Source: an uncultured Gammaproteobacteria bacterium
GTDB lineage: Bacteria; Patescibacteriota; Microgenomatia; Levybacterales; UBA12049
NCBI GenBank assembly: GCA_964564035.1
Contig: CAZLZN010000003.1
Span: 13,995-77,994, forward strand
Direction of reading: 5' to 3'
DNA: 64,000 nucleotides
The notes beneath the pieces were generated by a model. That model was not told where the DNA came from. It saw nothing but the letters and a program-made list of their open reading frames with translations, and did not search any database. This document shows positions 24,809 to 52,089 of the stretch, piece by piece (position 1 is the stretch's first letter; the number at the start of each line of letters is the position of its first letter). A program made the translations under genes and the position numbers.

Positions 24809-27800
24809 TTAACTCTTTATTTCCTCTTCTTTTTCCAGGTTGTTTTCTTCTGTTGAATTTTTGACTTCAACATCAACTTTCTCTTCTTGAGCCTCACTAG
24901 TCTTGAGTTCAGACAGCACTGTATTTGCTGCTTTTAGTTTTATCCTTAGATAATTAACGATTTCAGAATATGAGAATCCGCCGAGTAAAAGGAAAGGCAG
25001 AATAGCTCCGACTTTTTGCATACCCTCATTTTTCCGCTCAACTTCATCGGAAAGCAGGAGGGCTATTGTGCCGCTTATATTCTCGATATCTTTCTCGATC
25101 CACTCTATTCTTCCCTTTTTGTCATCACTAAACCCGAAAGGCACAGGCAAAGTTCGATAATTTTCCTCCCACATCTTTTCAATCTCCGAATAATCCTTGT
25201 CTGACACGGACTGAAGTCTGTTGTCGGACGGAGCTACAGCCGGACTTACGCTGGACATAACAGATTTGGCCAGTTTGTCATCTTTTTTACTTGCGTCGTT
25301 TAGATCTTTCTTCAACTGCGCAATCTCTTTAGCTCCTGTTGTCGGTTTTACATCAAGAATTGATTGCGCAAGCTTATTGCCTGCCCTTGCTGATTCTGAA
25401 AGCTCACTATGAAGCTTGCTGAATCTTTCTTTACTAGCCTGAGAGACAATCGGGCTCGGGTTAGCTATTTGCTGAATAATTTTCTTGAAGTTATTGATCT
25501 CCGCTTTATTATTTATTGTATTTACAACATTTTGTGCAAAAGGAACCCCCTTATTAGCCTCATTAATTAATTCGTCATAAATGCTCTGTACGCCCAACAG
25601 GGAAATGTCTTCTTTTATAGCAAGTATTTTTTGCGCGGTTTCATTTTTATTTTGCTCGGTCTCCCTCTGTAAAATATCATGCAATTCTTTGTATTGCATT
25701 TTTTCGGATTCTGATACAAGTTCAAGTTTCACTATATTCATAAGCTCGCTCTTCACCAAAGCCATAGGAACTGCAGTCTGAGCTTTATCCGGTACGCTGT
25801 TTCGTGATGCAGACAATACGGATTCAGCGGTTGCGTTGCCCTTTTGTGTTTCTTCCTCAAGTTTTATTCTGAGCTTCTCAATGGACTGTTTTTCCGCAGG
25901 ATCGGCAGCTCTCCCCGGCTCCGCGATCTTCTCAAGCACTTGTCTCATTTTTTGGATTTCAGCTTTCTTGTTATTATCTTTGGACAGTGCTATAGACTCA
26001 TACCTCGCTATGTCTTTGAGGCTCGGCACCTTCAAATTGACCATTGCGAGTATCTCATTTGATACTTGAGGCGTAACAATAGTTGAAGTTGCGGCCTGAG
26101 GCACAGAGACTTCTACTGATGGGGCCTCAACTGAGACAGCCATAGCCTGCTGTGCCGACGCTTGTTTGGTTTCGACTGTAACTTTTGTTTCTTCCTCGGC
26201 TTTTAGAGATTCAAGAACTTCTTTTGCGGCCTCTTGTTTTGTTTGAAGATATGAAACAATTTCAGCTTGAGAGAATCCTCCGACTAACAGGAAGGGGAGT
26301 ATATTGGATACTTCCGAAAGACCTTGATTGACCTGCTCCTGATCTGCCGATGTGAGAAGGCCGATAAGGTTTCCGATCTTATCAACATCGTCTTTCATCC
26401 ATTCCGCTCGTGTCCCGGACATTCCCTCCGGCACTTCCATATTCTGATAGTTTTCTTTCCACATCTTTTTGACTTCGGCAAGTTCTTCCGGTGTAACTGT
26501 CTGGATACGGTTGGTTTGGGGAAGTGTAATAGGCTGCGGAACTTCTCCCATGACAGTAGACGCCACAGATTCTCCCTTTAACTGGGCTTCTTTCAATTTT
26601 TCACTGAGTTTCTGAATATCTGCTGTTGATGTTGATTTATTTACACTAAGTATCGACGTAGCAAGCTCATTGCCCTCCTGACTTGCTTTAGTTATTGAAT
26701 CATGCAGCTTGGTCAGCCTCTCACGGTCTGCCGTTGATGCAGCTGTTGCCGGATTCGCGATTTGAGCAAGTACCTGCCGTACTTTTTGGGATTGCACCGA
26801 TTTGTTGACTGTCGATATAACGGTGGTTGCCAATACATTACCCTGGACTTGCGCTTTCTCAAGCTGTTCTTTTATCTTTTTCAGCTCATCAACAGATGTG
26901 TTGTCATTAACTGAAAGTATCGTTGTAGCAAGTTCATTTTTCTTATCATGACTCTCAGACAGTAATGCCTCATGAAGCTTATTAAACGATTCTTTTTCCG
27001 ATTCGGACGTTACGGTCGCAGGATTCGCGATCTGAGTCAGTATATTTTTAATTTCACTTGCCTGAATCGACGCAAATGACACATGCGCCGCGGACGCGCC
27101 GGCAGCCGCCAGGACTATACTTGCTGTCGCATTTCCTTTCTGCCCCTCCTCAAGAAGCTTCTCCCGCAGTTTATCAAACTTAACGCGCTCTGTTGAAACA
27201 GCAACGCTTGCGGGATTAGCGATATTCTCAAGAGTTTCTTTGACTTTTTGCACTTCAACTGCCTTTGATTTATCTCTCGACAACGACATCGAATCAAATC
27301 TGGCAATATCCCTCATTCTCGGCACCTTCAAATTGACCATTGCGAGTATCTCATTTGATACTTGAGGCGTAACAATAGTTGAAGTTGCGGCCTGAGGCAC
27401 AGAGACTTCTACTGATGGGGCCTCAACTGAGACAGCCATAGCCTGCTGTGCCGACGCTTGTTTGGTTTCGACTGTAACTTTTGTTTCTTCCTCGGCTTTT
27501 AGAGATTCAAGAACTTCTTTTGCGGCCTCTTGTTTTGTTTGAAGATATGAAACAATTTCAGCTTGAGAGAATCCTCCGACTAACAGGAAGGGGAGTATAT
27601 TGGATACTTCCGAAAGACCTTGATTGACCTGCTCCTGATCTGCCGATGTGAGAAGGCCGATAAGGTTTCCGATCTTATCAACATCGTCTTTCATCCATTC
27701 CGCTCGTGTCCCGGACATTCCCTCCGGCACTTCCATATTCTGATAGTTTTCTTTCCACATCTTTTTGACTTCGGCAAGTTCTTCCGGTGTAACTGTCTGG

Positions 27801-34454: not shown

Positions 34455-35810
34455 ATGGATCCCTCTGCCCAACCATCAGATCAAAACGACATTCAACCCG
34501 CGGACACCCAAGCTATCCCGGCTCCTCAGCCGGCTCCCAATCCCGAAGAACAGGAAGCCATGGCACGCGGAGACTTACCCATGAATCCTGACAGCAGCAG
34601 CATTGCCTCCGCCCAGGCCTCGGATAGCGAGGAAATGGCCAAGATGGACACAGTCGCCAAAGCCGAAATACACAATATACAAAACACTATCGACAATGCA
34701 GTCCCGCAAGACTCCAAAAAAACATCGAACATAGTTTCAGATCATGGTAAATCCAGCGACCAAATCCGGGTACTCGGAGAAAAAATCGAAAAAGCTCCCC
34801 TTCCGTCTGAGCTTAAAGCAATTCTCACAGAAAGAATTTCACGCCTAGCACTCATCAGACAAAGCGCCGGTTTTATGAGCTCGACATTCGTTATCGAATA
34901 TGAGCAGACTGCCAAATATGTAAACTGGGTGGTCGATATGCCTTGGGACAAACAAAGTGAGGATCTTCTGGATCTGGCCCGCGCGAAAGAAATAATGGAT
35001 AGAAGTCATTACGGCCTGGAGCCTTTGAAGGAAAGAGTCCTTGAATACATCGCGTCACTCATGCTCAATATCAAAAACAACAAAGGATCGGACAACGTGA
35101 TCAAAGCGCCGATCATCTGCGTTGTAGGATTGGCCGGTACCGGTAAAACAACATTTGCCAAAACTCTTGCGGAGTCTCTTGGCAGATCTTTCGAGCGCAT
35201 TCCGTTCGGAGGCATGGCGGACTCACGTGTTCTCAGAGGCCAATCCAGATATTTTCCCGACGCCGAACCCGGCGCGATCATCAAAAGCATGATCCACGGC
35301 AAAACCAAAAATCCGGTTATCCTGCTCGATGAACTGGACCGCGTTACGGACACTGCAAGAGCCGATATCATGGGCGTTCTTATCGAAATTCTGGACCCCG
35401 AACAGAACGCGCATTTTACCGATCACTACATAGATTATCCGTTCAGTCTCCAAAATGTTATCTTTATCGCGACCGCCAACAACGTAGCAAGCGTGGCAAC
35501 AGCCGTTCTTGACCGTCTCGAAATTATCAAAATGCCCTCGTACAACGACGATGAAAAAATAGTTATCGGCCGCAACTTCGTACTGCCCAAAACCATGAAG
35601 CTCACAGGCCTACTGCCCGAACAGCTGATTATCGACGAAGATGTCTGGCCGCCGCTAGTGAGGCCTCTCGGCTATGACCCGGGTGTACGCGGTCTCGACC
35701 GCCTGATCACCAATATGTGCCGCAAAGCAGCCATGCTGATCGTTTCGGGTGAAGCGGAGACTGTCCGGATAACAAACGACAACATCAAACAATTCATGCC
35801 CCAGTGGTAA
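34455..35810 (+). CDS. Lon-like AAA+ ATPase lacking both the LAN N-domain and the S16 protease domain
   Basis: Contains Lon-specific segments (YVNWVVDMPW, HYGLEPLKERVLEYIA), Walker A GLAGTGKTT, Walker B ILLDELDR, and GVRGLDRLI..CRK. It ends right after the AAA+ lid with no DGPSAG or Ser-Lys region. The N-terminal ~90 aa are disordered. Confidence 0.75.
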   Translation: MDPSAQPSDQNDIQPADTQAIPAPQPAPNPEEQEAMARGDLPMNPDSSSIASAQASDSEEMAKMDTVAKAEIHNIQNTIDNAVPQDSKKTSNIVSDHGKSSDQIRVLGEKIEKAPLPSELKAILTERISRLALIRQSAGFMSSTFVIEYEQTAKYVNWVVDMPWDKQSEDLLDLARAKEIMDRSHYGLEPLKERVLEYIASLMLNIKNNKGSDNVIKAPIICVVGLAGTGKTTFAKTLAESLGRSFERIPFGGMADSRVLRGQSRYFPDAEPGAIIKSMIHGKTKNPVILLDELDRVTDTARADIMGVLIEILDPEQNAHFTDHYIDYPFSLQNVIFIATANNVASVATAVLDRLEIIKMPSYNDDEKIVIGRNFVLPKTMKLTGLLPEQLIIDEDVWPPLVRPLGYDPGVRGLDRLITNMCRKAAMLIVSGEAETVRITNDNIKQFMPQW

Positions 35811-41497: not shown

Positions 41498-41876
41498 CAA
41501 CTCAGGCGGATTGGGCGGCGGATTCATGCTTGGGCTCCTGATCGGCGTTCTTATTACTCTGCTTATAACCACCAAAAAAGGCAGAGAGATCCTGCGTGAC
41601 CTAATGGACAAGATTATTCACAAACTCTCAAAAATTGACGAATCATTAGATAAGATCAAAGAAGAATTACGCGACGAAGAAAACAGCGACTACATCAAAA
41701 CAAACACTCAAAATATTAACGACGAAATTCGCCAAATAATATCCCAAACATCCGAAGAGCTCGAAAAACCTGTTCAATCAGCATCAAAAACAGAAACCAA
41801 AAGCTCAAGTTCAAAAAACGGCAAAGAAGATAAGCCTGCCAAGCGCTTGTTCTTTAGAAGAACCCACAAAAATTAA
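41481..41876 (+). CDS. YtxH-like membrane-associated protein
   Basis: Contains GGLGGGFMLGLLIGVLITLLITTKKGREILRDL followed by a coiled-coil, K/E-rich tail. I chose the ATG at 41481, which overlaps the previous gene by 17 nt. Confidence 0.5.
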   Translation: MENKSNNSGGLGGGFMLGLLIGVLITLLITTKKGREILRDLMDKIIHKLSKIDESLDKIKEELRDEENSDYIKTNTQNINDEIRQIISQTSEELEKPVQSASKTETKSSSSKNGKEDKPAKRLFFRRTHKN

Positions 41877-42643
41877 TTACCATACCCGTTGAACTCCATT
41901 TCAAACGACATATGAAACTCAGGCTTCGGAAATTTTAAAAGATCATCAATATTTTTTCGGTAATATTGCGCAAACGTCTTCTCCAGATACTCATCTACAT
42001 TCTTCCATATCGGACCTTCTCCCGACTGCTCGGCGATTGCGTCGACAGCGCCTCTGGCTTCGACCTCAAAATCACTAAATAATAGCAACTTATTAGACAA
42101 ATACCCCGGCAGAGCTTCCGGATACTTCGCGTTAAGCTTTGTATTGCCGTGCTTTTGGTATCTATGTATTGTCGACTCCCGGCCTAACAGCTTAAGCCAA
42201 TGAAGATACTTCACAATCAGATAAAATACATCCGGCACAAATAGCAGTAATTGATCCTTATATTCAAGAGAAGTATTGCGGCTTGCGGCCTGATTTAGGT
42301 GATTTATGCTTATGCAGATTGCATCGTCCTTGCCCGAATAGCCAAGCGCGCCTGCATCATTTGAAAAATTAAACTTAGGCCACTCGTCTTCTACGGCGTT
42401 TAAATACAACTTAGCTTCTTCCACGCCCGCAAGCAAATTGTTTTTCATCAGATTGAATGCATCTTCTGAAATCGTAAGCCCCGCCTGTGTTAATAACTGA
42501 AAATCAAACCGGTTATTAGATTTTTCCTCCACAACTTTTATTATAATACTTATCTGAGCATTTTGCCTATACCCCAAGAAATGAAGAATAAAAATCTCAA
42601 GAATTTCTTTTATTATATATAAGAGAAAATATAAAAATAACAA
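41873..42643 (-). CDS. Hypothetical protein (start uncertain)
   Basis: 256-aa ORF whose first ~15 codons overlap the znuB 3' end, so the true start is probably internal. No family recognised. Confidence 0.4.
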   Translation of the reverse strand: MLFLYFLLYIIKEILEIFILHFLGYRQNAQISIIIKVVEEKSNNRFDFQLLTQAGLTISEDAFNLMKNNLLAGVEEAKLYLNAVEDEWPKFNFSNDAGALGYSGKDDAICISINHLNQAASRNTSLEYKDQLLLFVPDVFYLIVKYLHWLKLLGRESTIHRYQKHGNTKLNAKYPEALPGYLSNKLLLFSDFEVEARGAVDAIAEQSGEGPIWKNVDEYLEKTFAQYYRKNIDDLLKFPKPEFHMSFEMEFNGYGN

Positions 42644-43428: not shown

Positions 43429-44178
43429 TTAATGATGCAATCCGCCCCGGCCGATTAATTCATGAAAATATTTACCTTTAATAAATTCTTCAGGGTCTCC
43501 GTAATAAACCAGCTCGCGGTTTACATAAGCAAGTTCAGTCGCCTCATGCGCTACAACGTCGAGTTCATGCGAAGCTAGTACAAGAGTCAAATTAAGTTCA
43601 CGGTTCAACTTCCGAAGTAGCGCGTAAAATTGTTTCTGTGTCTTAACATCCACGCCGACAGTTGGCTCATCCAAAAATACTACTTCGGGCTCGCTCGCAA
43701 GCGCTCTTGCTATAAAAACTCTCTGTTGTTGTCCGCCGGACAAATTGCGTATTTGAAAATTTTTATATTCATACATATCGACATTCATAAGCGCCTCTTT
43801 TACTGCTTCGCGGTCAACGTTATTCAACGATTTAAATAACCCCCTCTTTGCAAAACGTGCCATTGATACTATCTCCTCAACCGTAACAGGCAAACTCTGC
43901 TCTACAGTCGCTCTTTGGGGCACATAACCGATCTTGTACCAATCACGGAATTTTGAAATTTCCTGACCGAACAGATCTATTTCTCCGCTTTCAGGTTTTA
44001 ATAAATTTACCATAAGCTTGATCAGAGTAGACTTTCCTCCTCCGTTAGGCCCTATAATACCCAGATAATCCCCTCTATGAATTTGCAGCGAGTAATCCTT
44101 TATGGCATGGTGATTAGAATAATAAAAATTTATATTCTTTAGCTGGATTATAGTATGCGTGTGCTTTAAAGACTGCAT
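43429..44178 (-). CDS. znuC: Metal ABC transporter ATP-binding protein
   Basis: Walker A GPNGGGKST, signature LSGGQQQRVFIARAL and Walker B VVFLDEPT. Confidence 0.85.
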   Translation of the reverse strand: MQSLKHTHTIIQLKNINFYYSNHHAIKDYSLQIHRGDYLGIIGPNGGGKSTLIKLMVNLLKPESGEIDLFGQEISKFRDWYKIGYVPQRATVEQSLPVTVEEIVSMARFAKRGLFKSLNNVDREAVKEALMNVDMYEYKNFQIRNLSGGQQQRVFIARALASEPEVVFLDEPTVGVDVKTQKQFYALLRKLNRELNLTLVLASHELDVVAHEATELAYVNRELVYYGDPEEFIKGKYFHELIGRGGLHH

Positions 44179-45155
44179 TGGAGTGCTGTGCGCAGGTTAA
44201 TTAAATTATTTCTCATGACAGTTAGATAATTCTTGCCTGCACTTATATCATCATCCGACAAACCTTCTAGCGGGTCAAGTACCAAAGTTCGGGCACCCGT
44301 TTCGCTTGCTATCGTATTTGATAGTCTGGGGTTAACCAGAGTCTCAAAAAATATATATTCAATATCATTCTTTTTTACAAAATCCGACACTTCGGCAAGC
44401 TTTTGCGCGGACGGTTCTTCCTCCGGAGATATACCGGAAATTGAAACTTGATTCAAATTATATTGCCTGGCGATATAAGCAAACGCGGCGTGGGATGTAA
44501 CAAAATCTCTTTTTTTACAAGAAGACAACCCTTTTTGAAAATCTTCATCCAACAAACTCAGATCACTAAGCAGTTTTTTCTCATTTTCTTTGTAATAGGA
44601 CTCATTCATGGAGTCGCTTTTTACGAGCCCTTCTGTGATTTTCCGGACCATATCCTGCGCGATAACGGGACTAAGCCAAATATGAGGATCATATAGCTCT
44701 TCTCCGGCATGCACCTCTTCTTCAACTGCACCCTCCTCTTCATGCTCTGCGCCTTCGAGGAGCGTTATGCCTTCGGAAAGAACAGCATAATTAATTTTCT
44801 TCTCGTCTAAATCGCCTCTTATTTTCTCAAACCAGGGCTCAAAACCCGCTCCGTTTACGACAACCAAATCACTATTTTCAATTTCCGCTGCGTCACGCGG
44901 TGTTAACTCATAATCATGCGGCTCAACCCCCGGTGGAATAATCGCTTGCAAACTTATTTTGTCTCCGCCTATCCTCTCTGCAAAAAAATACAAAGGATAA
45001 AATGATGTTATGACTTGAATTTTGTTCTCATTTCGAGCATTTTCCGCCTGGCCGTTTCCTCCGGATGAATTATTATTCATAACAAAATACCACCCGCCGG
45101 CGGCAACAATCACGGCTAAAATAATCCATTTATATTTCATAATATTTTTATTCAT
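44166..45155 (-). CDS. znuA: Metal ABC transporter substrate-binding protein (ZnuA-like, His/Glu-rich loop)
   Basis: Cluster-9 SBP layout (HDYE, DPHIWL, H..F.Y) with an acidic, His-containing loop (EGAEHEEEGAVEEEVHAGEE) typical of zinc-specific members. Confidence 0.75.
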   Translation of the reverse strand: MNKNIMKYKWIILAVIVAAGGWYFVMNNNSSGGNGQAENARNENKIQVITSFYPLYFFAERIGGDKISLQAIIPPGVEPHDYELTPRDAAEIENSDLVVVNGAGFEPWFEKIRGDLDEKKINYAVLSEGITLLEGAEHEEEGAVEEEVHAGEELYDPHIWLSPVIAQDMVRKITEGLVKSDSMNESYYKENEKKLLSDLSLLDEDFQKGLSSCKKRDFVTSHAAFAYIARQYNLNQVSISGISPEEEPSAQKLAEVSDFVKKNDIEYIFFETLVNPRLSNTIASETGARTLVLDPLEGLSDDDISAGKNYLTVMRNNLINLRTALQCSL

Positions 45156-45212
45156 ATTACATTTTTATCAAACACTCTTTTTAACTTTATAACTTTATAA
45201 CTTTACGACTAA

Positions 45213-45644
45213 TTACTCCTGGCAATTCCTGCATAATCCGAAAAATTCCAGCGCATGGCTCTTCACAATAAATTTCTTTTTTCTTCTAATATCCTTCTCA
45301 AGCGCCGGTATCGCGCAATCGGAAAAAGATTCAACACTCCCGCAGGATGTACAAACCAGATGATGATGCTCCGGCTTGCTGGCAAGTTCGTACCTGAATT
45401 TTCCCTCATTAAATGAAACCTGCTTTGTTATTCCTTTTTGCGTAAAAGAATTCATCATCCTGAATACAGTTGCCGGATCGGCATCTATATTGCGTGCATC
45501 CAGATAGTCCATTACAGCATTTACGTCAATGGGCTCATTCACGCTTTCCAGAAGCTTCATAACCGCCAATCTGGCAGGAGTAGCCCTGAGTTCCGCGCTG
45601 TTTAATTCTTTTTTACAATTATGTTTTACACTAGCCGTTGTCAT
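45213..45644 (-). CDS. zur: Fur-family metalloregulator (probable Zur)
   Basis: Winged HTH (RATPARLAVMKLL), then HHHLVC..C and a terminal C..C pair (LCRNCQ). It is the first gene of the znuACB operon. I used the ATG at 45644. Confidence 0.75.
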   Translation of the reverse strand: MTTASVKHNCKKELNSAELRATPARLAVMKLLESVNEPIDVNAVMDYLDARNIDADPATVFRMMNSFTQKGITKQVSFNEGKFRYELASKPEHHHLVCTSCGSVESFSDCAIPALEKDIRRKKKFIVKSHALEFFGLCRNCQE

Positions 45645-45653
45645 ATAAAACAC

Positions 45654-45682
45654 ATTATTCCATAAATGCAATCAAATTGCAA
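45654..45682 (-). promoter_or_regulatory. Candidate zur promoter (TTGCAA-17-AATAAT, 9 nt to ATG) overlapped by a 6-3-6 palindrome
   Basis: Read on the minus strand: ttgcaa (45682-45677), a 17-nt spacer and aataat (45659-45654). The palindrome tgcaatcaaattgca (45667-45681) covers the -35 and spacer. Confidence 0.45.
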
Positions 45683-45686
45683 GTAG

Positions 45687-45715
45687 CAAAGAATCCCCAA
45701 TTAGGGGATTCTTTG
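45687..45715. other. Perfect 12-bp stem / 5-nt loop hairpin
   Basis: caaagaatcccc-aatta-ggggattctttg. It lies between the small minus-strand ORF and the zur promoter and has no flanking T-run. Confidence 0.6.
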
Positions 45716-45812
45716 AATGCATTGCGTAAAATAATAGTTTTTATTTTACCAACCGATTTATTACTTAAGTGGCAAAAGCATAAAGCGGCTAGTAATATAT
45801 ACAAAAAGTCCG

Positions 45813-45977
45813 TTAGGAGGAAAGTTTTGCCGCATCCTCTTTGCCGACAATTTTGAACAATTTTGTTCCATTAAGCTCAGCTTTCGCGGCCTTTTTACCA
45901 TTTTTCATAGTTACAAGCGTCACTTCACTATTCGGGACTTCAACTGTTTGTCTGGTTTTTACATTATAAAACTTCAA
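45813..45977 (-). CDS. Small protein (54 aa), Cys-less relative of a small zinc-ribbon family (not in the ORF track)
   Basis: TTG start 8 nt after a GGAGG. Translation: MKFYNVKTRQTVEVPNSEVTLVTMKNGKKAAKAELNGTKLFKIVGKEDAAKLSS. It overlaps the upstream gene's 3' end by 14 nt. The pattern VT.KNG+.A.K...GTK.F+I.GK recalls DUF5679-like zinc ribbons, from memory. Confidence 0.45.
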   Translation of the reverse strand: MKFYNVKTRQTVEVPNSEVTLVTMKNGKKAAKAELNGTKLFKIVGKEDAAKLSS

Positions 45978-46293
45978 TCTGATCACCTCCTCTCAAAGAA
46001 ACTACATTCATTAATCGATCTGTTTCTGATATCACTTGAAGCTCTGTCCACTTCGGATAACGAACATGCAATAATTCATGAATAATATCAGACATATACA
46101 GCTTCCTTGTATGATAAAGGTGAGCTTTAAGATTTGAATGATCTGCATGAATCCCCACAAACTCATTCCCGATGTTCATATCATCATCAACAACTTGCTC
46201 AGTACTAATCTTAAGTAAATCAATTTTATATTCGATGATTGAAAGTTTTTCCTTCCAAAATTCAATAAATGAAGAGATATTTTTATCACTCAT
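45964..46293 (-). CDS. Small HExxH-motif protein (putative zinc metallopeptidase-like)
   Basis: 109 aa with DIIHELLHV as the only recognisable motif. Confidence 0.45.
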   Translation of the reverse strand: MSDKNISSFIEFWKEKLSIIEYKIDLLKISTEQVVDDDMNIGNEFVGIHADHSNLKAHLYHTRKLYMSDIIHELLHVRYPKWTELQVISETDRLMNVVSLRGGDQIEVL

Positions 46294-46296
46294 AAT

Positions 46297-46335
46297 CGCA
46301 ACTTAATTGCGATTATTATATGCAATTAACTTGCG
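46297..46335. promoter_or_regulatory. Two GCAA-N5-TTGC palindromes (candidate Zur/Fur-family operators)
   Basis: cgcaacttaattgcg (46297-46311) and tgcaattaacttgcg (46321-46335) share a core with tgcaatcaaattgca at 45667-45681. Confidence 0.45.
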
Positions 46336-46343
46336 TTAGTCAA
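46315..46343 (-). promoter_or_regulatory. Near-consensus promoter TTGACT-17-TATAAT for the HExxH / small-ORF transcription unit
   Basis: Read on the minus strand: ttgact (46343-46338), a 17-nt spacer containing one palindrome, and tataat (46320-46315). The second palindrome lies between -10 and the ATG. Confidence 0.55.
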
Positions 46344-46373
46344 TACCCATTTTTACATTACCTATTTAAATAT

Positions 46374-47504
46374 TTACGCTGATTTAAAAAAACTCTTAAA
46401 CGTCAAGCCCCTAAGTGCTATATATGAAGCCAGAAATGTAGTTATCGGGACGGCAAGTATCAACGCGCTTGAACCCGCTATGGTAGCAATTATCTCCTCC
46501 ATTGTAGTTTCGTTATTTAAAATCACCCACCAGGGAAGACTTGCCGGATTTAAAGCAATAAAAATAAATATCCCGATCGACGATCCCGCGTAAGCCAAAA
46601 CCAAAGTATTGACCATAGATGCTATATGTTCTTTGCCAATATCCATACCCTTTCTGAATAATTCAAAAAAATTCTGTTTCGGATTTTCTTTGACGATCGT
46701 AAAAATAGTAATCGCCTGAGTGGTAGTTATGTCATTTAAAGCGCCAAGCGTACCGATAAGAATAGCCCCAAGCAAAATCCCCTGCGTGTTATAAATTATA
46801 TTTGCACCTGATTGAAGCTGATAAATATCCTCATTACCAAGACCTGTCAAAGAAAGCGCTCCTGTTAAAACAGTAGATAGCCAGCCGGTAATTATCAAGG
46901 ATAATGCAGTACCCGCGACGGCGACGGAAGTTTTGAGATTAAACCCGTGCGCGATATATGTTGTAAAAAATAAAATAATACATGCGCCGATTACGACAAT
47001 CCGTACAGGATCCGAACCGCTCACTATTTGCGGAATGACCCACTGACTGATGATCAATAGACTGATCACAAGTCCCGCAAATGCCCCGATACCTTTTTTA
47101 CCGCCTACCAGAAAAATCAATATCAAAAAACCTATTACGGCATACATCAATCCATCCAATCTATAAGGCTCAAAAATAGAATAAAACTCATCGCCTTTAT
47201 CATTTACTTTTATATTTACAACTACTTTTTCGCCTTTTTTCAAATCGAACGTTTTTAATTTTGGATTAATTGTCCTGTCTGTTTGTACCAATCTGTCTTT
47301 ATACTCACCCTCCAAAATCCTGATCTGGACTGACTGCGAAACATATTCCGAAGCGTTAGAAATTACAGTTTTTTCTTCAAATACTTTTTCAATCTCCCCC
47401 AGAACATATAAATCTTTAACTTTATTTGTCTGCGCGAATATTGTTTCTGTTGAAAAAAACAATAAAATAAATAGTATTAAAATCGTATAAAAATATCTCA
47501 GCAT
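46374..47504 (-). CDS. YibE/F-like polytopic membrane protein
   Basis: 376 aa with a signal/TM segment, a ~100-aa extracytoplasmic beta-rich domain and 7 TM helices. The family call is from memory of the architecture only. Confidence 0.45.
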   Translation of the reverse strand: MLRYFYTILILFILLFFSTETIFAQTNKVKDLYVLGEIEKVFEEKTVISNASEYVSQSVQIRILEGEYKDRLVQTDRTINPKLKTFDLKKGEKVVVNIKVNDKGDEFYSIFEPYRLDGLMYAVIGFLILIFLVGGKKGIGAFAGLVISLLIISQWVIPQIVSGSDPVRIVVIGACIILFFTTYIAHGFNLKTSVAVAGTALSLIITGWLSTVLTGALSLTGLGNEDIYQLQSGANIIYNTQGILLGAILIGTLGALNDITTTQAITIFTIVKENPKQNFFELFRKGMDIGKEHIASMVNTLVLAYAGSSIGIFIFIALNPASLPWWVILNNETTMEEIIATIAGSSALILAVPITTFLASYIALRGLTFKSFFKSA

Positions 47505-47604
47505 AAAAATTATTATATACTACACCGCAATCAGTTTACAAAAATTTGGTATATACCTCCTTAGCTTTGCCATTTCGCTCTATAGAGCTTCGTAGACATA
47601 GATC

Positions 47605-47644
47605 AAAAATTGCCTGCCCCTTCGTAGCTTTAGCGAAGTGGGGC
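47605..47644 (-). terminator. Weak candidate terminator downstream of hsdS
   Basis: Imperfect GC-rich hairpin (gcccc.ttcg / cgaag.t.gggg, 47616-47644) followed on the minus strand by aggcaattttt. The stem-to-T-run spacing is not ideal. Confidence 0.3.
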
Positions 47645-47692
47645 TTCGCGGCATTATACAAGTCTGTATTATGAAAGCAAAGGGGTATAGCA

Positions 47693-49015
47693 TTAACTTG
47701 ATGACATCTTGGAAATGCTGAAAGACTCAGCGTTTTTTCTCAAAATTTCAACTGCCCGATTAAATTTATAAAAAGAATCACCTGCTAATTGGGAAATTAT
47801 TTTTTGCGTCTTCGCATCGGCAAGTGGAATCTTTATATTATTTATAGAATCAATATTTAAATGGGGAACTAGCGATCCCCCGCTTTGCCTAACCATCTGT
47901 CTTATACAAAATTCGGAATTAAGACACATTGCAATATAAGACGGATCAAACTCCTCATTCACATTTATTCTGACGACCCCCGAAGATATTATCGCTTTTA
48001 CAAAATTTGTCATCTTGCATGCAACCCCAATCTTGCCGTCTTTGACTAATAGAACTTCGTTTCTTCGCGGCTGATATTTATCGGATATTTTTTTATAGTA
48101 TTTTTCAGAGACAAACTTCTGGCTCTTATCATCAATTCCAAATTTACTAATATTGCTTGGTCTTAAAAATAAAATTCCGTTTTTAGTATACATATCTCTG
48201 CCCGGCTCAATTCCCCTGGATATTTCACTGATTTTATGAAGCAGTAAATATTTTAATTTTTGTAAAATATTATATGAATCATTAACAAAAAACTCGGCAT
48301 CCATCCGTTTCGCTTTTTTTAAAATTGAAAAATCACAAAAATTTTTAATTATCCCCGCTTCCCCGTCTACGGAACTGATTAAACCTCTCAAAATCCGCTC
48401 AGCGCGATTATAATCGTTTTTAGATTCTCTTAATAATTTCAGCGCCTTTTTCACCCTTTTACCAACTATATTCTGTTCCTTAATAGACAATATCGGAATT
48501 TCAATTTCTGAAAAATTATTAATATTAATACTGGATAAAGAAACTTTCTTAACAATGTTTTCGATTTGCTTTTTTGCTTTTTCTGAATTTAAGTAAGCAA
48601 GTAAAAAATAGGGATTACACAATTTCTTATTGACTCTAATGACTAATAAATTGGAGCTGATCAAACACTTCCCTCGATCAATTATTCCGCATTTAAAGTC
48701 ACCGATCCGCCCGATTAATATATCCTCTTTTTTATAAAATTTTATTTTGTTTTTTACAATATTTTTTATATCTGCAAAAACAAACCGTCCGTTATCACAT
48801 TTCCATCCGTCCAGATTTGATGGCCTTACTATACTAACCCCGTCCGATATATAATTATCAGCTCTCAGTACAGACCCCGACGGACCGGTCTCTATAAATT
48901 CACAAAGGTCTTTTAATTTGACAAAAATAATATTTTTATTTACATTATTTCTATAAAATTCGGCATCCATTCTTCCTGAAAAATTTATATATGAAAAATC
49001 AACCAAACTATACAT
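47693..49015 (-). CDS. hsdS: Type I restriction-modification specificity subunit (HsdS, two target-recognition domains)
   Basis: Two repeated halves, each beginning ..RMDAEFY/F.. plus a conserved helical spacer. I chose the ATG at 49015 (MYSLVDF..), 5 nt after the hsdM stop. The gene is very AT-rich. Confidence 0.7.
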   Translation of the reverse strand: MYSLVDFSYINFSGRMDAEFYRNNVNKNIIFVKLKDLCEFIETGPSGSVLRADNYISDGVSIVRPSNLDGWKCDNGRFVFADIKNIVKNKIKFYKKEDILIGRIGDFKCGIIDRGKCLISSNLLVIRVNKKLCNPYFLLAYLNSEKAKKQIENIVKKVSLSSININNFSEIEIPILSIKEQNIVGKRVKKALKLLRESKNDYNRAERILRGLISSVDGEAGIIKNFCDFSILKKAKRMDAEFFVNDSYNILQKLKYLLLHKISEISRGIEPGRDMYTKNGILFLRPSNISKFGIDDKSQKFVSEKYYKKISDKYQPRRNEVLLVKDGKIGVACKMTNFVKAIISSGVVRINVNEEFDPSYIAMCLNSEFCIRQMVRQSGGSLVPHLNIDSINNIKIPLADAKTQKIISQLAGDSFYKFNRAVEILRKNAESFSISKMSSS

Positions 49016-49019
49016 ATAA

Positions 49020-50162
49020 TTAAAATCCCGAATTATTCTTTTCAATATAATTATTAAAATCATTTTTAATCTCATAAAGATCCGTATCGATTATTTTACG
49101 ATTATTATAATTTCTAAATAACAACTTTCCCGCCCTGTTCTTCCCGCTATTTTTTGATACCGCCATAAAAATAGAATAATCTTTAAGCGGCTTTTCTTTC
49201 CATTTATGGATAAATAAAAGGCTGGTCTTTACATTGGTAAATGGTTTGAAAGTATTCGTATCCAGACTGACAACACCAAGAATACGGCATTTACTATAAA
49301 TCCACTCCCTGACATAATTAAGATTTGTGTTATTTAAAACTCCCTGAGGCACAACTATGCACGCCCTCCCACCCGGCTTTAATAATTTAATTATCTTTTC
49401 GATAAATAATATATGTCTCTCAACTATATTTTTTTTCATACCGTTTTTATTATTAGCTAATTCATAATCCGCTAATAACTCACAGTCCTTAACCTCTCCT
49501 CCGAATGGCGGATTAGTCATAATCACATCATAAAAATTCTCTTTGTAATTCGGGTCTTCCATGCTCTTCAACGCATCTGCGCTTATTATTTTTATATTAC
49601 GAAATCCGGTCATCAGCATCATGATTTCCGCAACTCTCCGCATTTGTTTATCAAAATCAATTCCAAAAATATTCTTATCGGTCTTCATGTAATTCGCGCT
49701 GTGCAGTAAAAATCCTCCTGATCCGCAGGCAGGGTCAAGAATAGTTTCGCCTTTTTTTGGATCAAGAATTTCGATTATCACATCAATTATGTGTCTCGGC
49801 GTAAAATATTGTCCCCTGTTTCCTTTCGCTTTTTTTGGTAATAAATACTCAAACGCGCTGTCAATTATTTCCAATTTCGAAGATTTTAGTTTGGTGTTTT
49901 TCAACAAGTTAAAAATATTATCTAACGGCTTATCATCAAGCTCCAAAATGTTTTCATTCTGAAAAATACCCGGCCATTCTTTTTTTACTTCGGCAAAAAC
50001 CTCCCGAGGATTATCCAATGTCTTATTTATTTTCTCTGAAAAAAGTTTTATGGATATTATTTTCAGTATCTCCTCAAACGGATCGCAGCCGCTTGACGTC
50101 AAAATAATCTCCTCCATTTCTTTTACTAATCCCGGTAAATCATCTTCTTTATACACAGCCAT
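49020..50162 (-). CDS. hsdM: N6-adenine DNA methyltransferase, compact HsdM-like
   Basis: Contains GQYFTPRHI, motif I DPACGSGGFL and motif IV NPPFGG in 380 aa, which is shorter than typical HsdM. Confidence 0.8.
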   Translation of the reverse strand: MAVYKEDDLPGLVKEMEEIILTSSGCDPFEEILKIISIKLFSEKINKTLDNPREVFAEVKKEWPGIFQNENILELDDKPLDNIFNLLKNTKLKSSKLEIIDSAFEYLLPKKAKGNRGQYFTPRHIIDVIIEILDPKKGETILDPACGSGGFLLHSANYMKTDKNIFGIDFDKQMRRVAEIMMLMTGFRNIKIISADALKSMEDPNYKENFYDVIMTNPPFGGEVKDCELLADYELANNKNGMKKNIVERHILFIEKIIKLLKPGGRACIVVPQGVLNNTNLNYVREWIYSKCRILGVVSLDTNTFKPFTNVKTSLLFIHKWKEKPLKDYSIFMAVSKNSGKNRAGKLLFRNYNNRKIIDTDLYEIKNDFNNYIEKNNSGF

Positions 50163-50285
50163 AATCCTACTTCATGATTGGCACCAAAGTCAACATAAAT
50201 GGCTTTACATAATTCTGCTTATTCTATTATTAACTGCTTACCATAAACTGATAAGCTTTCTTTAAAGGAGGTGATTATTTTGGGA

Positions 50286-50429
50286 ATGATTGAAACTATT
50301 ATTGCCGTGCTGATAATAATTTGGCTGGCAGGATTTTTTTTGAATTTTGCCGGGGGATTGATACATATACTTCTGGTAATTGCTGTAATTATTTTTATTT
50401 ACAGAATGCTTAGACGCTCACGTATCTAA
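50286..50429 (+). CDS. Small hydrophobic protein, lmo0937-family-like (47 aa; not in the ORF track)
   Basis: AAGGAGG at 50265-50271. Translation: MIETIIAVLIIIWLAGFFLNFAGGLIHILLVIAVIIFIYRMLRRSRI. A TTG at 50280 is an alternative start. The GGLIH.LLVIAVI core matches my memory of this family. Confidence 0.55.
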   Translation: MIETIIAVLIIIWLAGFFLNFAGGLIHILLVIAVIIFIYRMLRRSRI

Positions 50430-50983
50430 TCGCTTTTCGGCAAAATTTTAGACAGTTTTCTAAAATCCTGCATAATAATTTCCTTAAGCGGGGGAAATCT
50501 GATGCCCGCCGCGGGATGAAGCGTCACCATATATTTACGTCCGTTTCGCTCGAGAATCTCGCCGTGCCGCGACTTGACCGGAATTTTTTCGCCAAGTACG
50601 CCCTGCACCGCGACGTTGCCCAGTAAGACAATTATTTTTGGATCAATAACTTCAAGCTGACGATCCAAATGAATTTTGCCGTGTTTGATATCGGAAGGAC
50701 TGGGCGTCCCCCTATCCGGCAGATACTTAACCGGACTTGTAATATAAACTTCCCGCTCCCTAAGCCCGCTATCGACAATTAATGATCTTAATAACTTTCC
50801 TGATCTCCCTATAAACGGCCTGCCCGATAAAGCCTCCTGCTTTCCCGGTGCCTCACCTATAAACACAACTTCCGCATCAGAATTACCCTCACCAACTACA
50901 GCCTTTCCTGATTTTCCAATTGGACATATTTTACAATTAATAATCTCATCGTTAACTTTTTGCAGCAGTGCGGTTTTGTTCAT
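50426..50983 (-). CDS. Uracil-DNA glycosylase, family 4
   Basis: C-x2-C near the N terminus, then GEGN..A.VVFIGEAPG..E...G.PF.G.SGKLL, and a C-terminal HP motif. Confidence 0.85.
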   Translation of the reverse strand: MNKTALLQKVNDEIINCKICPIGKSGKAVVGEGNSDAEVVFIGEAPGKQEALSGRPFIGRSGKLLRSLIVDSGLREREVYITSPVKYLPDRGTPSPSDIKHGKIHLDRQLEVIDPKIIVLLGNVAVQGVLGEKIPVKSRHGEILERNGRKYMVTLHPAAGIRFPPLKEIIMQDFRKLSKILPKSD

Positions 50984-50992
50984 TATAAAAAA

Positions 50993-51979
50993 TTAAAAAA
51001 GATGGTTATCTGTTAAATGCGCTCCTCTTGAAGGATAATTTATAATAGTCTTTTGCACTTCTTCAACTTCTGACAATTTTGAAGTTAGCTCATCAACATC
51101 TTTTTTCTGAACTATCAAATGAATATCTTGCCCTGTATTGACTGTGAAATACACCTCCAGACCTTCGCTTCTCCACTTTTTTACCAGATGCATTATTTTC
51201 AGACTCGCAGGAAGAAGATAGATCAAAGAAGGCGTACTGGTCAGCATTATAGAGTGAAGTTCCAAAGCCTCAGCCTCCAGAAGTTCCCCAAAACCTGTAA
51301 AATTTTTATCATTCATAAGCTTCTTTATTTTATCTATTTTTTCCCTCATGTGGTTTTTCCGTAATTCAAAAAACGGACTTGAAGCGGCAAGTTTCTGGCC
51401 GGAAGTTGTGCTGACTTCTTTTTTATTTTTACTGACAACAGCGACCACATCCGCGATATCCCAATAATCAGGCTTAAATATCGATACGGCATAAGACGCA
51501 TCCGACGAATCACCATCCAGCCATTCAACAAACCCGTCAGGAATCGAACGGCATGCAGATCCCGAACCTTGCCTCGCGAGAATCGACAATTCTTTTTCCG
51601 GTAAATTTAGTCCTGCCGCGCTAGCCGCTGCAACCGTCAAAGCCGCGAATCCGGACGCGGACGAAGATAACCCTGTTCCGCTCGGAAAATTATTATTGGT
51701 TACGACCTTCGCGCGGTCCATTATATTCACGGTTTTTCTTATTCGATCCAGATGCACAATAGCCCTGTTGCCTTCATTTTCTTCCTGAATACCGTTGATA
51801 ATAATTGTGTCTTGTTTATATTCGGAGCCAAACTCAACAGTCGTTGTTGTAAGCAAATTACTTAAACACATCGATATGCTTCCGTTCTCAGGAAGCCTGA
51901 GTACCTCATCCTTCTTTCCCCAATATTTTATAAACGCAATATTTGATGGTGCTACAGCCGTCGCTTTCATATCTATCAT
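50993..51979 (-). CDS. mvaD: Diphosphomevalonate (or phosphomevalonate) decarboxylase
   Basis: APSNIAFIKYWGKKD, the GHMP motif PSGTGLSSSASGFAAL and an SGSACRS motif. Confidence 0.85.
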   Translation of the reverse strand: MIDMKATAVAPSNIAFIKYWGKKDEVLRLPENGSISMCLSNLLTTTTVEFGSEYKQDTIIINGIQEENEGNRAIVHLDRIRKTVNIMDRAKVVTNNNFPSGTGLSSSASGFAALTVAAASAAGLNLPEKELSILARQGSGSACRSIPDGFVEWLDGDSSDASYAVSIFKPDYWDIADVVAVVSKNKKEVSTTSGQKLAASSPFFELRKNHMREKIDKIKKLMNDKNFTGFGELLEAEALELHSIMLTSTPSLIYLLPASLKIMHLVKKWRSEGLEVYFTVNTGQDIHLIVQKKDVDELTSKLSEVEEVQKTIINYPSRGAHLTDNHLF

Positions 51980-52089
51980 TAATTATATACAAGTCGTTGC
52001 CCATTTTGCATATTATTTCATCCAAAATGGGCGTGCGTTTGTGTCTACCCGTAGCAAATTCATTTGCAAGTGGTATAACAAAAATCTGT

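Follow-up and report, generated by a model that had tools for sequence, protein, structure and literature searches.

Three 15-bp inverted repeats of the form GCAA-N5-TTGC lie on two promoters beside a Fur-family regulator gene and a znuACB operon in the stretch of DNA analyzed here, a window of 64,000 nucleotides from contig CAZLZN010000003.1 (assembly GCA_964564035.1), to which all positions refer. The three dyads are likely to serve as operators for the Fur-family repressor encoded next to them, probably a zinc sensor, which would control its own uptake operon and a neighboring unit. The sites sit on promoters, are deeply conserved, are tied specifically to Fur-family genes, and precede a recurring set of genes. 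The elements concerned are the following, with scores in bits referring to the weight matrix described below:

45667..45681: putative operator O1, TGCAATCAAATTGCA, on the regulator-gene promoter; its left half-site is the -35 hexamer TTGCAA; 23.1 bits
46321..46335: putative operator O2, in the 17-nt spacer between the -35 and -10 of the second-unit promoter; 23.8 bits
46297..46311: putative operator O3, between the second-unit -10 and the ATG; 20.2 bits
45654..45682, minus strand: regulator/znuACB promoter, TTGCAA (45682..45677)-17-AATAAT (45659..45654), with a TG extension (consensus promoter scan)
46315..46343, minus strand: second-unit promoter, TTGACT (46343..46338)-17-TATAAT (46320..46315), 11 of 12 positions matched (consensus promoter scan)
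45213..45644, minus strand: gene of the Fur-family regulator, 143 amino acids (aa), PF01475 at 1.2e-25 over residues 17-134; Zur-like by gene context

Reading the window directly gave the dyads tgcaatcaaattgca (45667-45681), cgcaacttaattgcg (46297-46311), and tgcaattaacttgcg (46321-46335). Their coordinates, and their placement relative to the -35 and -10 hexamers of two promoters as given by the promoter scan, agree with an earlier interpretation made without database searches (the sequence-only reading). That reading had also proposed two separate repressed units, and the structural part of the proposal held up. The centers of O2 and O3 are 24 bp apart, and downstream of O3 follows the ATG (46293) of a gene for a protein with an HExxH motif. 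Every gene in the region is carried by the minus strand, in the order YibE/F, HExxH protein, 54-aa open reading frame (ORF), hairpin, Fur-family gene, znuA, znuC, and znuB. The core GCAA-N5-TTGC occurs five times in the window against 1.76 expected, a count reached in 5 of 100 shuffles, which is weak evidence and proves nothing alone. Three of the five cores fall within 670 bp, all three on promoters, and the matrix selects exactly these three sites, the next best in the window reaching at most 8.1 bits. The two other exact cores, at 25368 and 26661, were ruled out as operators, having GC-rich centers, wrong flanks, and scores of -1.1 and -13.

Conservation was examined in 80 loci from different genomes (686 kb in total), each oriented with the Fur-family gene on the plus strand. 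Every inverted dyad of 4-mers with a gap of 0-12 was counted in the -150 to -1 regions of the 80 orthologues, and the remainder of the loci served as background. The dyads that ranked highest were GCAA-N5-TTGC, found in 55 of the 80 regions against 0.47 expected (116-fold enriched), TGCA-N7-TGCA (46 of 80 against 0.39), and ATGC-N9-GCAT (43 of 80 against 0.29). These three are one nested palindrome, the 17-bp ATGCAA-N5-TTGCAT, with a 6-5-6 geometry. A classical n-1-n box (7-1-7 or 9-1-9) did not emerge: the best dyad gaps were 5, 7, and 9 around a single center, with a weakly conserved 5-bp core. Exact cores numbered 96 in the 686 kb, and 60 of these lay no more than 200 bp upstream of a Fur-family gene, in 56 of the 80 loci. 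The sequence-only reading had named scatter of the motif through coding regions or unrelated promoters, or its absence upstream of orthologues, as findings that would count against an operator; neither was observed.

A 21-bp weight matrix (consensus AAATGCAACTAAGTTGCATTT) was then built from the orthologous loci and used with a site threshold of at least 12 bits. It found 133 sites in the loci, 100 of them next to the start of a Fur-family gene, and at least 71 of the 80 related genomes carried such a site. Most sites outside the upstream regions of Fur genes precede znuA, the gene of the small 54-aa protein, the HExxH gene, or other metal-related genes; the sequence-only reading had proposed a test for enrichment upstream of zinc-related genes. 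The half-site TGCAA is at least 90% conserved and the spacing is constant at 5, both in the matrix and in the dyad enumeration. The outermost base of the half-site is A in 76% of sites, and the center is partly constrained, with T at position 6 and A at position 8 in 78% each.

Searching metagenomes with a pattern that combined promoter and site, TTGACAAAYGCRA-N5-TYGCATATAMT, revealed 122 matches in 120 loci. A Fur-family gene was the first gene downstream in 84 of the 122; among the remaining first genes were those for the small protein (5 matches), a MinD/CbiA-like NTPase (4), the HExxH protein (2), ZnuA (1), a small protein with a ZIP transporter behind it (1), and a His-rich membrane protein that is weakly CDF-like (1). 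Genes of other regulators do not recur near the sites, either in the orthologous loci or among the metagenome matches. Since 84 of the 122 matches precede a Fur-family gene and no other regulator recurs, autoregulation is the economical reading. One locus fetched through its HExxH homologue (L201) repeats the layout of the window with all three sites.

Two promoter architectures recur among the 80 loci. Architecture A (46 of 80), TTGACAAAT-[GCAA N5 TTGC]-ATATACT-AAT-[GCAA N5 TYGC]-ATTT..ATG, has one site within the spacer and often a second after the -10, as in the HExxH promoter of the window; paired sites with centers 23 or 24 bp apart were found in 20 loci. In architecture B (17 of 80), the half-site TTGCAA doubles as the -35 and is followed by an extended -10, with the ATG 6-9 nt after the -10. 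This is the layout of the window's regulator promoter, and orthologues show TATAAT-N6-ATG, which implies that mRNAs of this architecture would be leaderless or nearly leaderless. The window's regulator mRNA is probably of this kind, because the ATG lies within 6-9 nt of the -10 in TTGCAA-type promoters (9 nt here, 45644-45659) and no Shine-Dalgarno sequence is present. The same type of promoter and ATG distance was seen in the upstream regions of L003, L010, and L011. The dyad thus keeps its symmetry at three positions relative to the hexamers, namely over the -35, in the spacer, and after the -10; its position shifts and its symmetry is retained, which argues for a protein-binding site and not a promoter element. 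Repressors that exclude RNA polymerase occupy such positions, that is, over the -35, within the spacer, and across the start region.

The regulator contains an HHH motif and two CxxC pairs, and the alignment of its homologues showed H8, C10, D109, C110, and H130 to be conserved. C98, C101, C138, and C141, which make up the structural Cys4 zinc site, and H93-H95 are invariant in 34 homologues and in 165 loci. The PF01475 match, the Cys4 site, and the His-rich motif before the first CxxC place the protein in the Fur family. Homologues number in the hundreds at 55-80% identity; those with a named source come from Patescibacteria, Levybacteria/Levyibacteriota, and Saccharimonadales, and most carry no source name. 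No second Fur-family gene was found in the window or within the loci. In two metagenome-assembled genomes, two loci each carry a Fur-family gene with the same operator (L047 and L048 in CAZRBN01, L073 and L076 in CAYYAC01). The latter two look like strain variants; the contexts of L047 and L048 differ (the small protein in one, a second type of ATP-binding cassette (ABC) system in the other), and these two may be true paralogues with a common box.

Behind the regulator gene lies the uptake operon:

45155..44166, minus strand: znuA, PF01297 at 4e-86; three His ligands and a His/Glu-rich loop
44178..43429, minus strand: znuC, PF00005
43400..42597, minus strand: znuB, PF00950

The three-His pattern of ZnuA is found in EPHDYE, DPHIWL, and TSHAAF, and among NCBIfam models it matches best to AztC and AdcA, both zinc proteins. 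In the window and in 38 of the 129 loci with enough downstream DNA, the regulator is followed by a zinc-type znuACB. Operator sites also stand upstream of znuA in L079 and L081 and upstream of a ZIP transporter operon in L092, the ZIP transporter matching PF02535 at 7e-49. If the protein does bind the sites, we regard zinc as quite probably the signal. Pointing to zinc are the ZnuA with three His and a loop, the ZIP transporter, a Cys-less homologue of a zinc ribbon encoded in the second unit (see below), and the extra conserved C10 and C110, which lie outside the structural Cys4 site.

Several observations weigh against a zinc-sensing repressor acting at these sites. The closest of 24 solved relatives of the regulator is a Fur (9ire, 8.4e-21), ahead of M. 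tuberculosis FurB/Zur (2o03, 4.5e-17). The regulator falls short of the NCBIfam equivalog cut-offs of Zur, Fur, and PerR alike: the Zur equivalog NF008646 gives 47.5 bits against a cut-off of 167, and the Fur and PerR equivalogs score higher and still fall below their cut-offs. The sensing-site cysteine C76 of M. tuberculosis Zur, whose counterpart in Streptomyces coelicolor Zur we take to be C79, aligns with Ala88 of the regulator, so that this Cys ligand is absent. The name zur given to the gene by the sequence-only reading is therefore upheld by its context (znuACB) and not by these comparisons. A second ABC type stands behind the regulator in 15 of the 129 loci (among them L001 5472-6416, L008, L012, L024, L044, and L074), with two permease genes and a binding protein that has 2His+Glu+Glu ligands, lacks the His loop, and looks Mn/Fe-like; in L001 this system is headed by its own operator pair. 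It raises doubt about strict zinc specificity, and no residue among the candidate ligand positions compared separates the regulators beside the two ABC types. Nine of the 80 orthologous loci lack a site that reaches 12 bits, and the matrix was trained on exact-core sites, so that its core columns are circular; the dyad enumeration is not. Finally, a search of the 64-kb window and of 1.4 Mb of loci, though not of whole genomes, revealed no Cys-containing copy of DUF5679, the zinc-ribbon family in question.

The strongest alternative, which we consider unlikely, keeps the regulator and operators as described and replaces the metal: iron or manganese would be sensed, by a protein of the Fur or Mur kind, or the protein would be a metal-uptake repressor of broad specificity. 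It draws on the similarity to Fur and PerR among solved structures and NCBIfam models, on the missing Zur sensing-site Cys, and on the 15 loci with Mn/Fe-type ligands and two permeases; set against these are a regulon encoding a three-His, His/Glu-loop ZnuA, a ZIP transporter, and a zinc-ribbon homologue that lacks Cys, the extra cysteines C10 and C110, which suit a thiophilic metal, and the finding that no siderophore, heme, ferritin, or Mn-specific genes were seen beside the sites. It is improbable that the palindromes are instead bound by another transcription factor, which would regulate the Fur gene among others. Many dimeric regulators suit palindromes of this size, and binding by the Fur-family protein is itself deduced from sequence, but no other regulator gene recurs in the neighborhood, the motif tracks Fur-family genes (84 of 122 metagenome promoters and 55 of 80 orthologous loci), and Nur, a Fur-family member, uses the same 6-5-6 core. 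That the dyads arose by chance, or are promoter parts such as extended sigma-factor elements without repressor function, is highly improbable: the core count in the window is weakly above expectation and the sites overlap strong hexamers, but the enrichment upstream of orthologues, the intact symmetry at three positions relative to the -35 and -10, and the recurrence of pairs at a constant spacing of 23-24 bp all argue otherwise.

For a zinc-responsive Fur-family repressor acting at O1-O3, we infer that the protein binds the sites, that this binding represses, and that zinc is the signal. Since O1 holds the -35 hexamer of the regulator's promoter, a metal-bound dimer on O1 would cover that hexamer and shut off regulator-znuACB (autoregulation). 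Two more dimers, on O2 in the spacer and on O3 in the start region, with centers 24 bp apart, would turn off the second unit. At metal shortage, the repressor would leave the DNA, and the products released from repression would be the ZnuABC importer, the HExxH protein, a Cys-less DUF5679-like protein, and a structured RNA ending at a terminator.

The second unit comprises the following features:

45964..46293, minus strand: HExxH protein gene, 109 aa, with invariant H61-T-R, H72-E-L-L-H76, and Y79-P-x-W-x-E84; 8 homologues
45813..45977, minus strand: small protein gene, 54 aa; TTG start at 45977, GGAGG 8 nt upstream; 14-nt overlap with the HExxH gene
45713..45799, minus strand: structured RNA, 3' of the small gene, with hairpins P1 and P2 and a conserved single strand
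45687..45715, minus strand: hairpin CAAAGAAUCCCC-UAAUU-GGGGAUUCUUUG, a probable terminator, 5 nt before the -35 of the regulator promoter (RNAfold)

The overlap of the HExxH gene and the 54-aa ORF, already stated by the sequence-only reading, was confirmed at 14 nt; no Shine-Dalgarno sequence is present at the HExxH gene, and GGAGG stands at the small gene. The AlphaFold model of the HExxH protein has a predicted local distance difference test (pLDDT) score of 89 and shows a helix, three strands, and two helices. The protein has no Pfam or NCBIfam match. In a comparison with zincin-type metallopeptidases (HExxH on a helix, a third ligand, and the zincin fold), it showed an invariant HELLH and E84 and a confident model, and its best fold matches, to the IrrE/PprI metalloproteases and ACE, are weak (E > 0.4, template modeling (TM) score about 0.3).

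The small protein has 110 close homologues, all unannotated, and no Pfam or NCBIfam match even at E = 10; weak Ybfg_C matches in this search of the second-unit proteins were disregarded. Its AlphaFold model has a pLDDT of 90, and a fold search gave nothing significant (LysW zinc-ribbon carrier at E = 0.099, Sac7d/Sso7d at a TM score of about 0.5). A variant that keeps the second CxxC and thus half of the Cys (KAVCEVCGTTMFKI) matches PF18930, DUF5679, at 1.7e-7. Searching 1.84 billion representatives with a small-protein profile returned 313 relatives, and the best 149 of these 313 include 27 canonical Cys4 proteins (for example, MEAYCVKCREKREIQDEKAVTMKNGRHAIEGTCAVCGTRLFRMISNKDAE at 1e-7) and 115 without CxxC; Cys4 proteins of the DUF5679 type were found by the profile at 2e-8 to 5e-5. 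These matches identify the small protein as a homologue of the Cys4 zinc ribbon DUF5679 that is itself Cys-less. All four Cys are gone, with YCVKCR replaced by FYNVKTR and GxCPxCGTKMF by xxNGTKLF. By analogy, this loss would fit the classical Zur logic of metal-free substitutes, and the small protein is at most a candidate replacement paralogue.

The two proteins are linked because their genes overlap, because a natural fusion of 177 aa (P0339) joins an HExxH domain to a Cys-less DUF5679-like domain, and because both occur together in L202. The fusion implies that the two overlapping window genes would function together. L202 (2182-3435) combines a Fur gene and a site of 20.9 bits (TAATGCAACGGAGTTGCGTTT) with a Cys-less ORF of 58 aa that an HExxH gene overlaps. 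A 71-aa Cys/His-rich lipoprotein lies ahead of the Fur gene there, and a second site lies 3.4 kb away (6133). A TonB-dependent receptor gene on the 1.69-Mb contig, the sole basis for the assignment, hints that L202 comes from a Bacteroidota-like organism.

The RNA follows the stop codon of the small gene in many loci in the order P1, P2, an unpaired UUUUACACAAUACAU, and an intrinsic terminator. P1 is a long hairpin with base CAUUUGGCC...GGCCAAAUG, and P2 is a 5-bp hairpin, AUGCC/GGCAU. The hairpin at 45687..45715 is a probable intrinsic terminator ending the second unit according to the folding model, and equivalent hairpins are present in orthologous loci; its short T-run kept it from being called in a consensus terminator scan. 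A covariance model with a hand-set structure was made from five seeds, the window copy not among them, and used to search 772 kb. It matched window positions 45799..45713 at 33.8 bits (E = 5.6e-4), and further non-seed copies were found in L014, L026, L064, L171, and L142 (E up to 0.002) and in L047 (E = 0.055). In a 12-sequence alignment, 95.6% of cells were paired against 81.3% in shuffles, and compensatory double changes occurred in 12 of 16 base pairs, a result that none of 500 shuffles equaled and for which slid controls gave no more than 5 such pairs; fitting of the alignment to the covariance model favors the structure. MAFFT plus RNAalifold recovered the short hairpin alone because the long hairpin varies in length. 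Rfam 15 gave no relevant match at E up to 1 in seven loci and up to 5 in window 45000-47000.

In L011 (3528-3710), a double-operator promoter drives the RNA directly, with no ORF. Other copies were located at L003 4800-4893 and L014 4811-4887, and the RNA was always seen within a unit headed by an operator-bearing promoter. Neither the RNA nor the zinc-ribbon homology of the 54-aa ORF had been recognized by the sequence-only reading. Several genomes have a reduced form, ACACAAUACA plus a hairpin, in the regulator gene's 5' leader, and the RNA may therefore act in cis just as well as in trans. Duplex energies within the window gave self-complementary matches and one unconvincing candidate target near 34816-34870. 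That the RNA is a trans-acting riboregulator, freed at metal shortage, working alongside the HExxH/Cys-less DUF5679 module, and using UUUUACACAAUACAU to silence mRNAs of zinc-requiring proteins, is a doubtful possibility; if true, it would be a RyhB-like metal-sparing small RNA for zinc in the reduced genomes of Patescibacteria. RyhB and PrrF are small RNAs repressed by Fur. One report describes s-SodF as a Nur-dependent RNA processed from the 3' untranslated region of sodF (PMC3919588). The RNA found here is similar in lying behind an operator promoter, 3' of a small gene or alone (L011), and in having an unpaired stretch followed by a terminator. It differs in that its reduced form lies in the regulator 5' leader of some genomes, which would fit a cis role.

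The closest known counterpart of the operator is the Nur box of S. coelicolor, tTGCaa-N5-ttGCAA, a 6-5-6 box that its authors contrast with the n-1-n Fur box (PMC2691836). The two agree in the 6-5-6 geometry, the variable 5-bp center, the core GCAA-N5-TTGC, and a half-site that matches at five of its six positions (TGCAA); in both, a Fur-family protein (here by inference) would act on metal-uptake promoters. Compared with the Nur box, the outermost base here is A instead of T, and the center is not fully free. The regulator itself is not a Nur orthologue; this candidate was ruled out, since Nur (3eyy, 6.2e-7) ranks 21 of 24, near the far end of the solved relatives and behind Fur, Zur, and PerR, and no nickel-related genes (nikABCDE, sodN, sodF) were seen beside the sites.

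Known Zur boxes include the 7-1-7 box of Bacillus subtilis and the actinobacterial, enterobacterial, and cyanobacterial boxes, and double boxes at -35 and -10 are described for the Zur promoters of S. coelicolor znuA and B. subtilis yciC (PMC6103462). The present system resembles such regulons in the repressor gene beside znuABC, the box over the -35, the two boxes per promoter, and the presence of Cys-less paralogues of zinc-binding proteins, which are derepressed at zinc shortage in known systems. It differs in its 6-5-6 operator, compared with n-1-n or a 23-bp palindrome, so that the remark of the sequence-only reading that the dyads depart from known Zur boxes was correct, the likeness being to Nur. 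It also differs in a regulator without the sensing-site Cys, in a Cys-less protein that is a homologue of DUF5679 instead of a ribosomal protein, and in the gene content: no COG0523 gene was seen, and a MinD/CbiA-like NTPase is present. This MinD/CbiA/ParA-like P-loop NTPase (KGGTGKT) was seen directly behind operator-bearing promoters in L026 (2922-4723), L091 (6617), L100, L174, and L175, in L026 within an operon that also encodes the small Cys-less protein. The place held by COG0523 metallochaperones in classical Zur regulons may be taken here by this NTPase.

Zur autoregulation, boxes on promoters, double boxes, and Cys-less substitutes are already known in kind. New are the type of operator used by this Fur-family branch, the RNA, and the regulon content, which comprises the Cys-less DUF5679 and the mini HExxH protein and, as possible members, YibE/F and a MinD-like NTPase. 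A literature search found no Zur or Fur operator for Patescibacteria and no relevant Zur operator for Bacteroidetes; judged solely from this negative, transcriptional regulation in Patescibacteria is poorly studied. With a defined operator, ATGCAA-N5-TTGCAT, and a putative cognate regulator, the regulon becomes readable from metagenomes alone. The 6-5-6 geometry, described so far for the nickel-sensing Nur, also occurs in a large unrelated Fur-family branch tied to zinc uptake, and this recurrence bears on the evolution of Fur-family DNA specificity. The Cys-less DUF5679 protein, the 109-aa HExxH protein, the YibE/F membrane proteins, and the MinD/CbiA-like NTPase provide testable functional leads, and the RNA, which is supported by covariation and has no counterpart in Rfam 15, is a possible riboregulator that responds to metal.

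Among the neighboring genes, a YibE/F membrane-protein gene (PF07907) occupies 47504..46374 on the minus strand. It is divergent from the Fur-family gene, with the operator in the common intergenic region, in 38 of 165 loci, and co-directional and just upstream in the window, L002, and L201. YibE/F is a possible regulon member, perhaps a metal transporter; a literature search on the function of YibE/F and DUF5679 found nothing relevant. A double-site promoter, TTGACAAACGCAAGTAAATTGCATATAAT..ACGCAAGTAAGTTGCATAT, precedes an unannotated protein of 236-244 aa in L118 (1713), L120 (7666), L125, L146, L161, and L200, and this protein is unrelated to the other regulon genes. A 256-aa ORF (41873-42643, minus strand) overlaps the end of znuB, has no Pfam match, and recurs after znuB in L002 at 58% identity. 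Of two further minus-strand ORFs between 47693 and 50162, beside the locus, one of 460 aa resembles by eye a type I restriction-modification specificity subunit, and the other, of 380 aa, an N6-adenine methylase. The G+C content falls to 0.36-0.37 across 44001-52000, compared with 0.42-0.47 elsewhere in the window.

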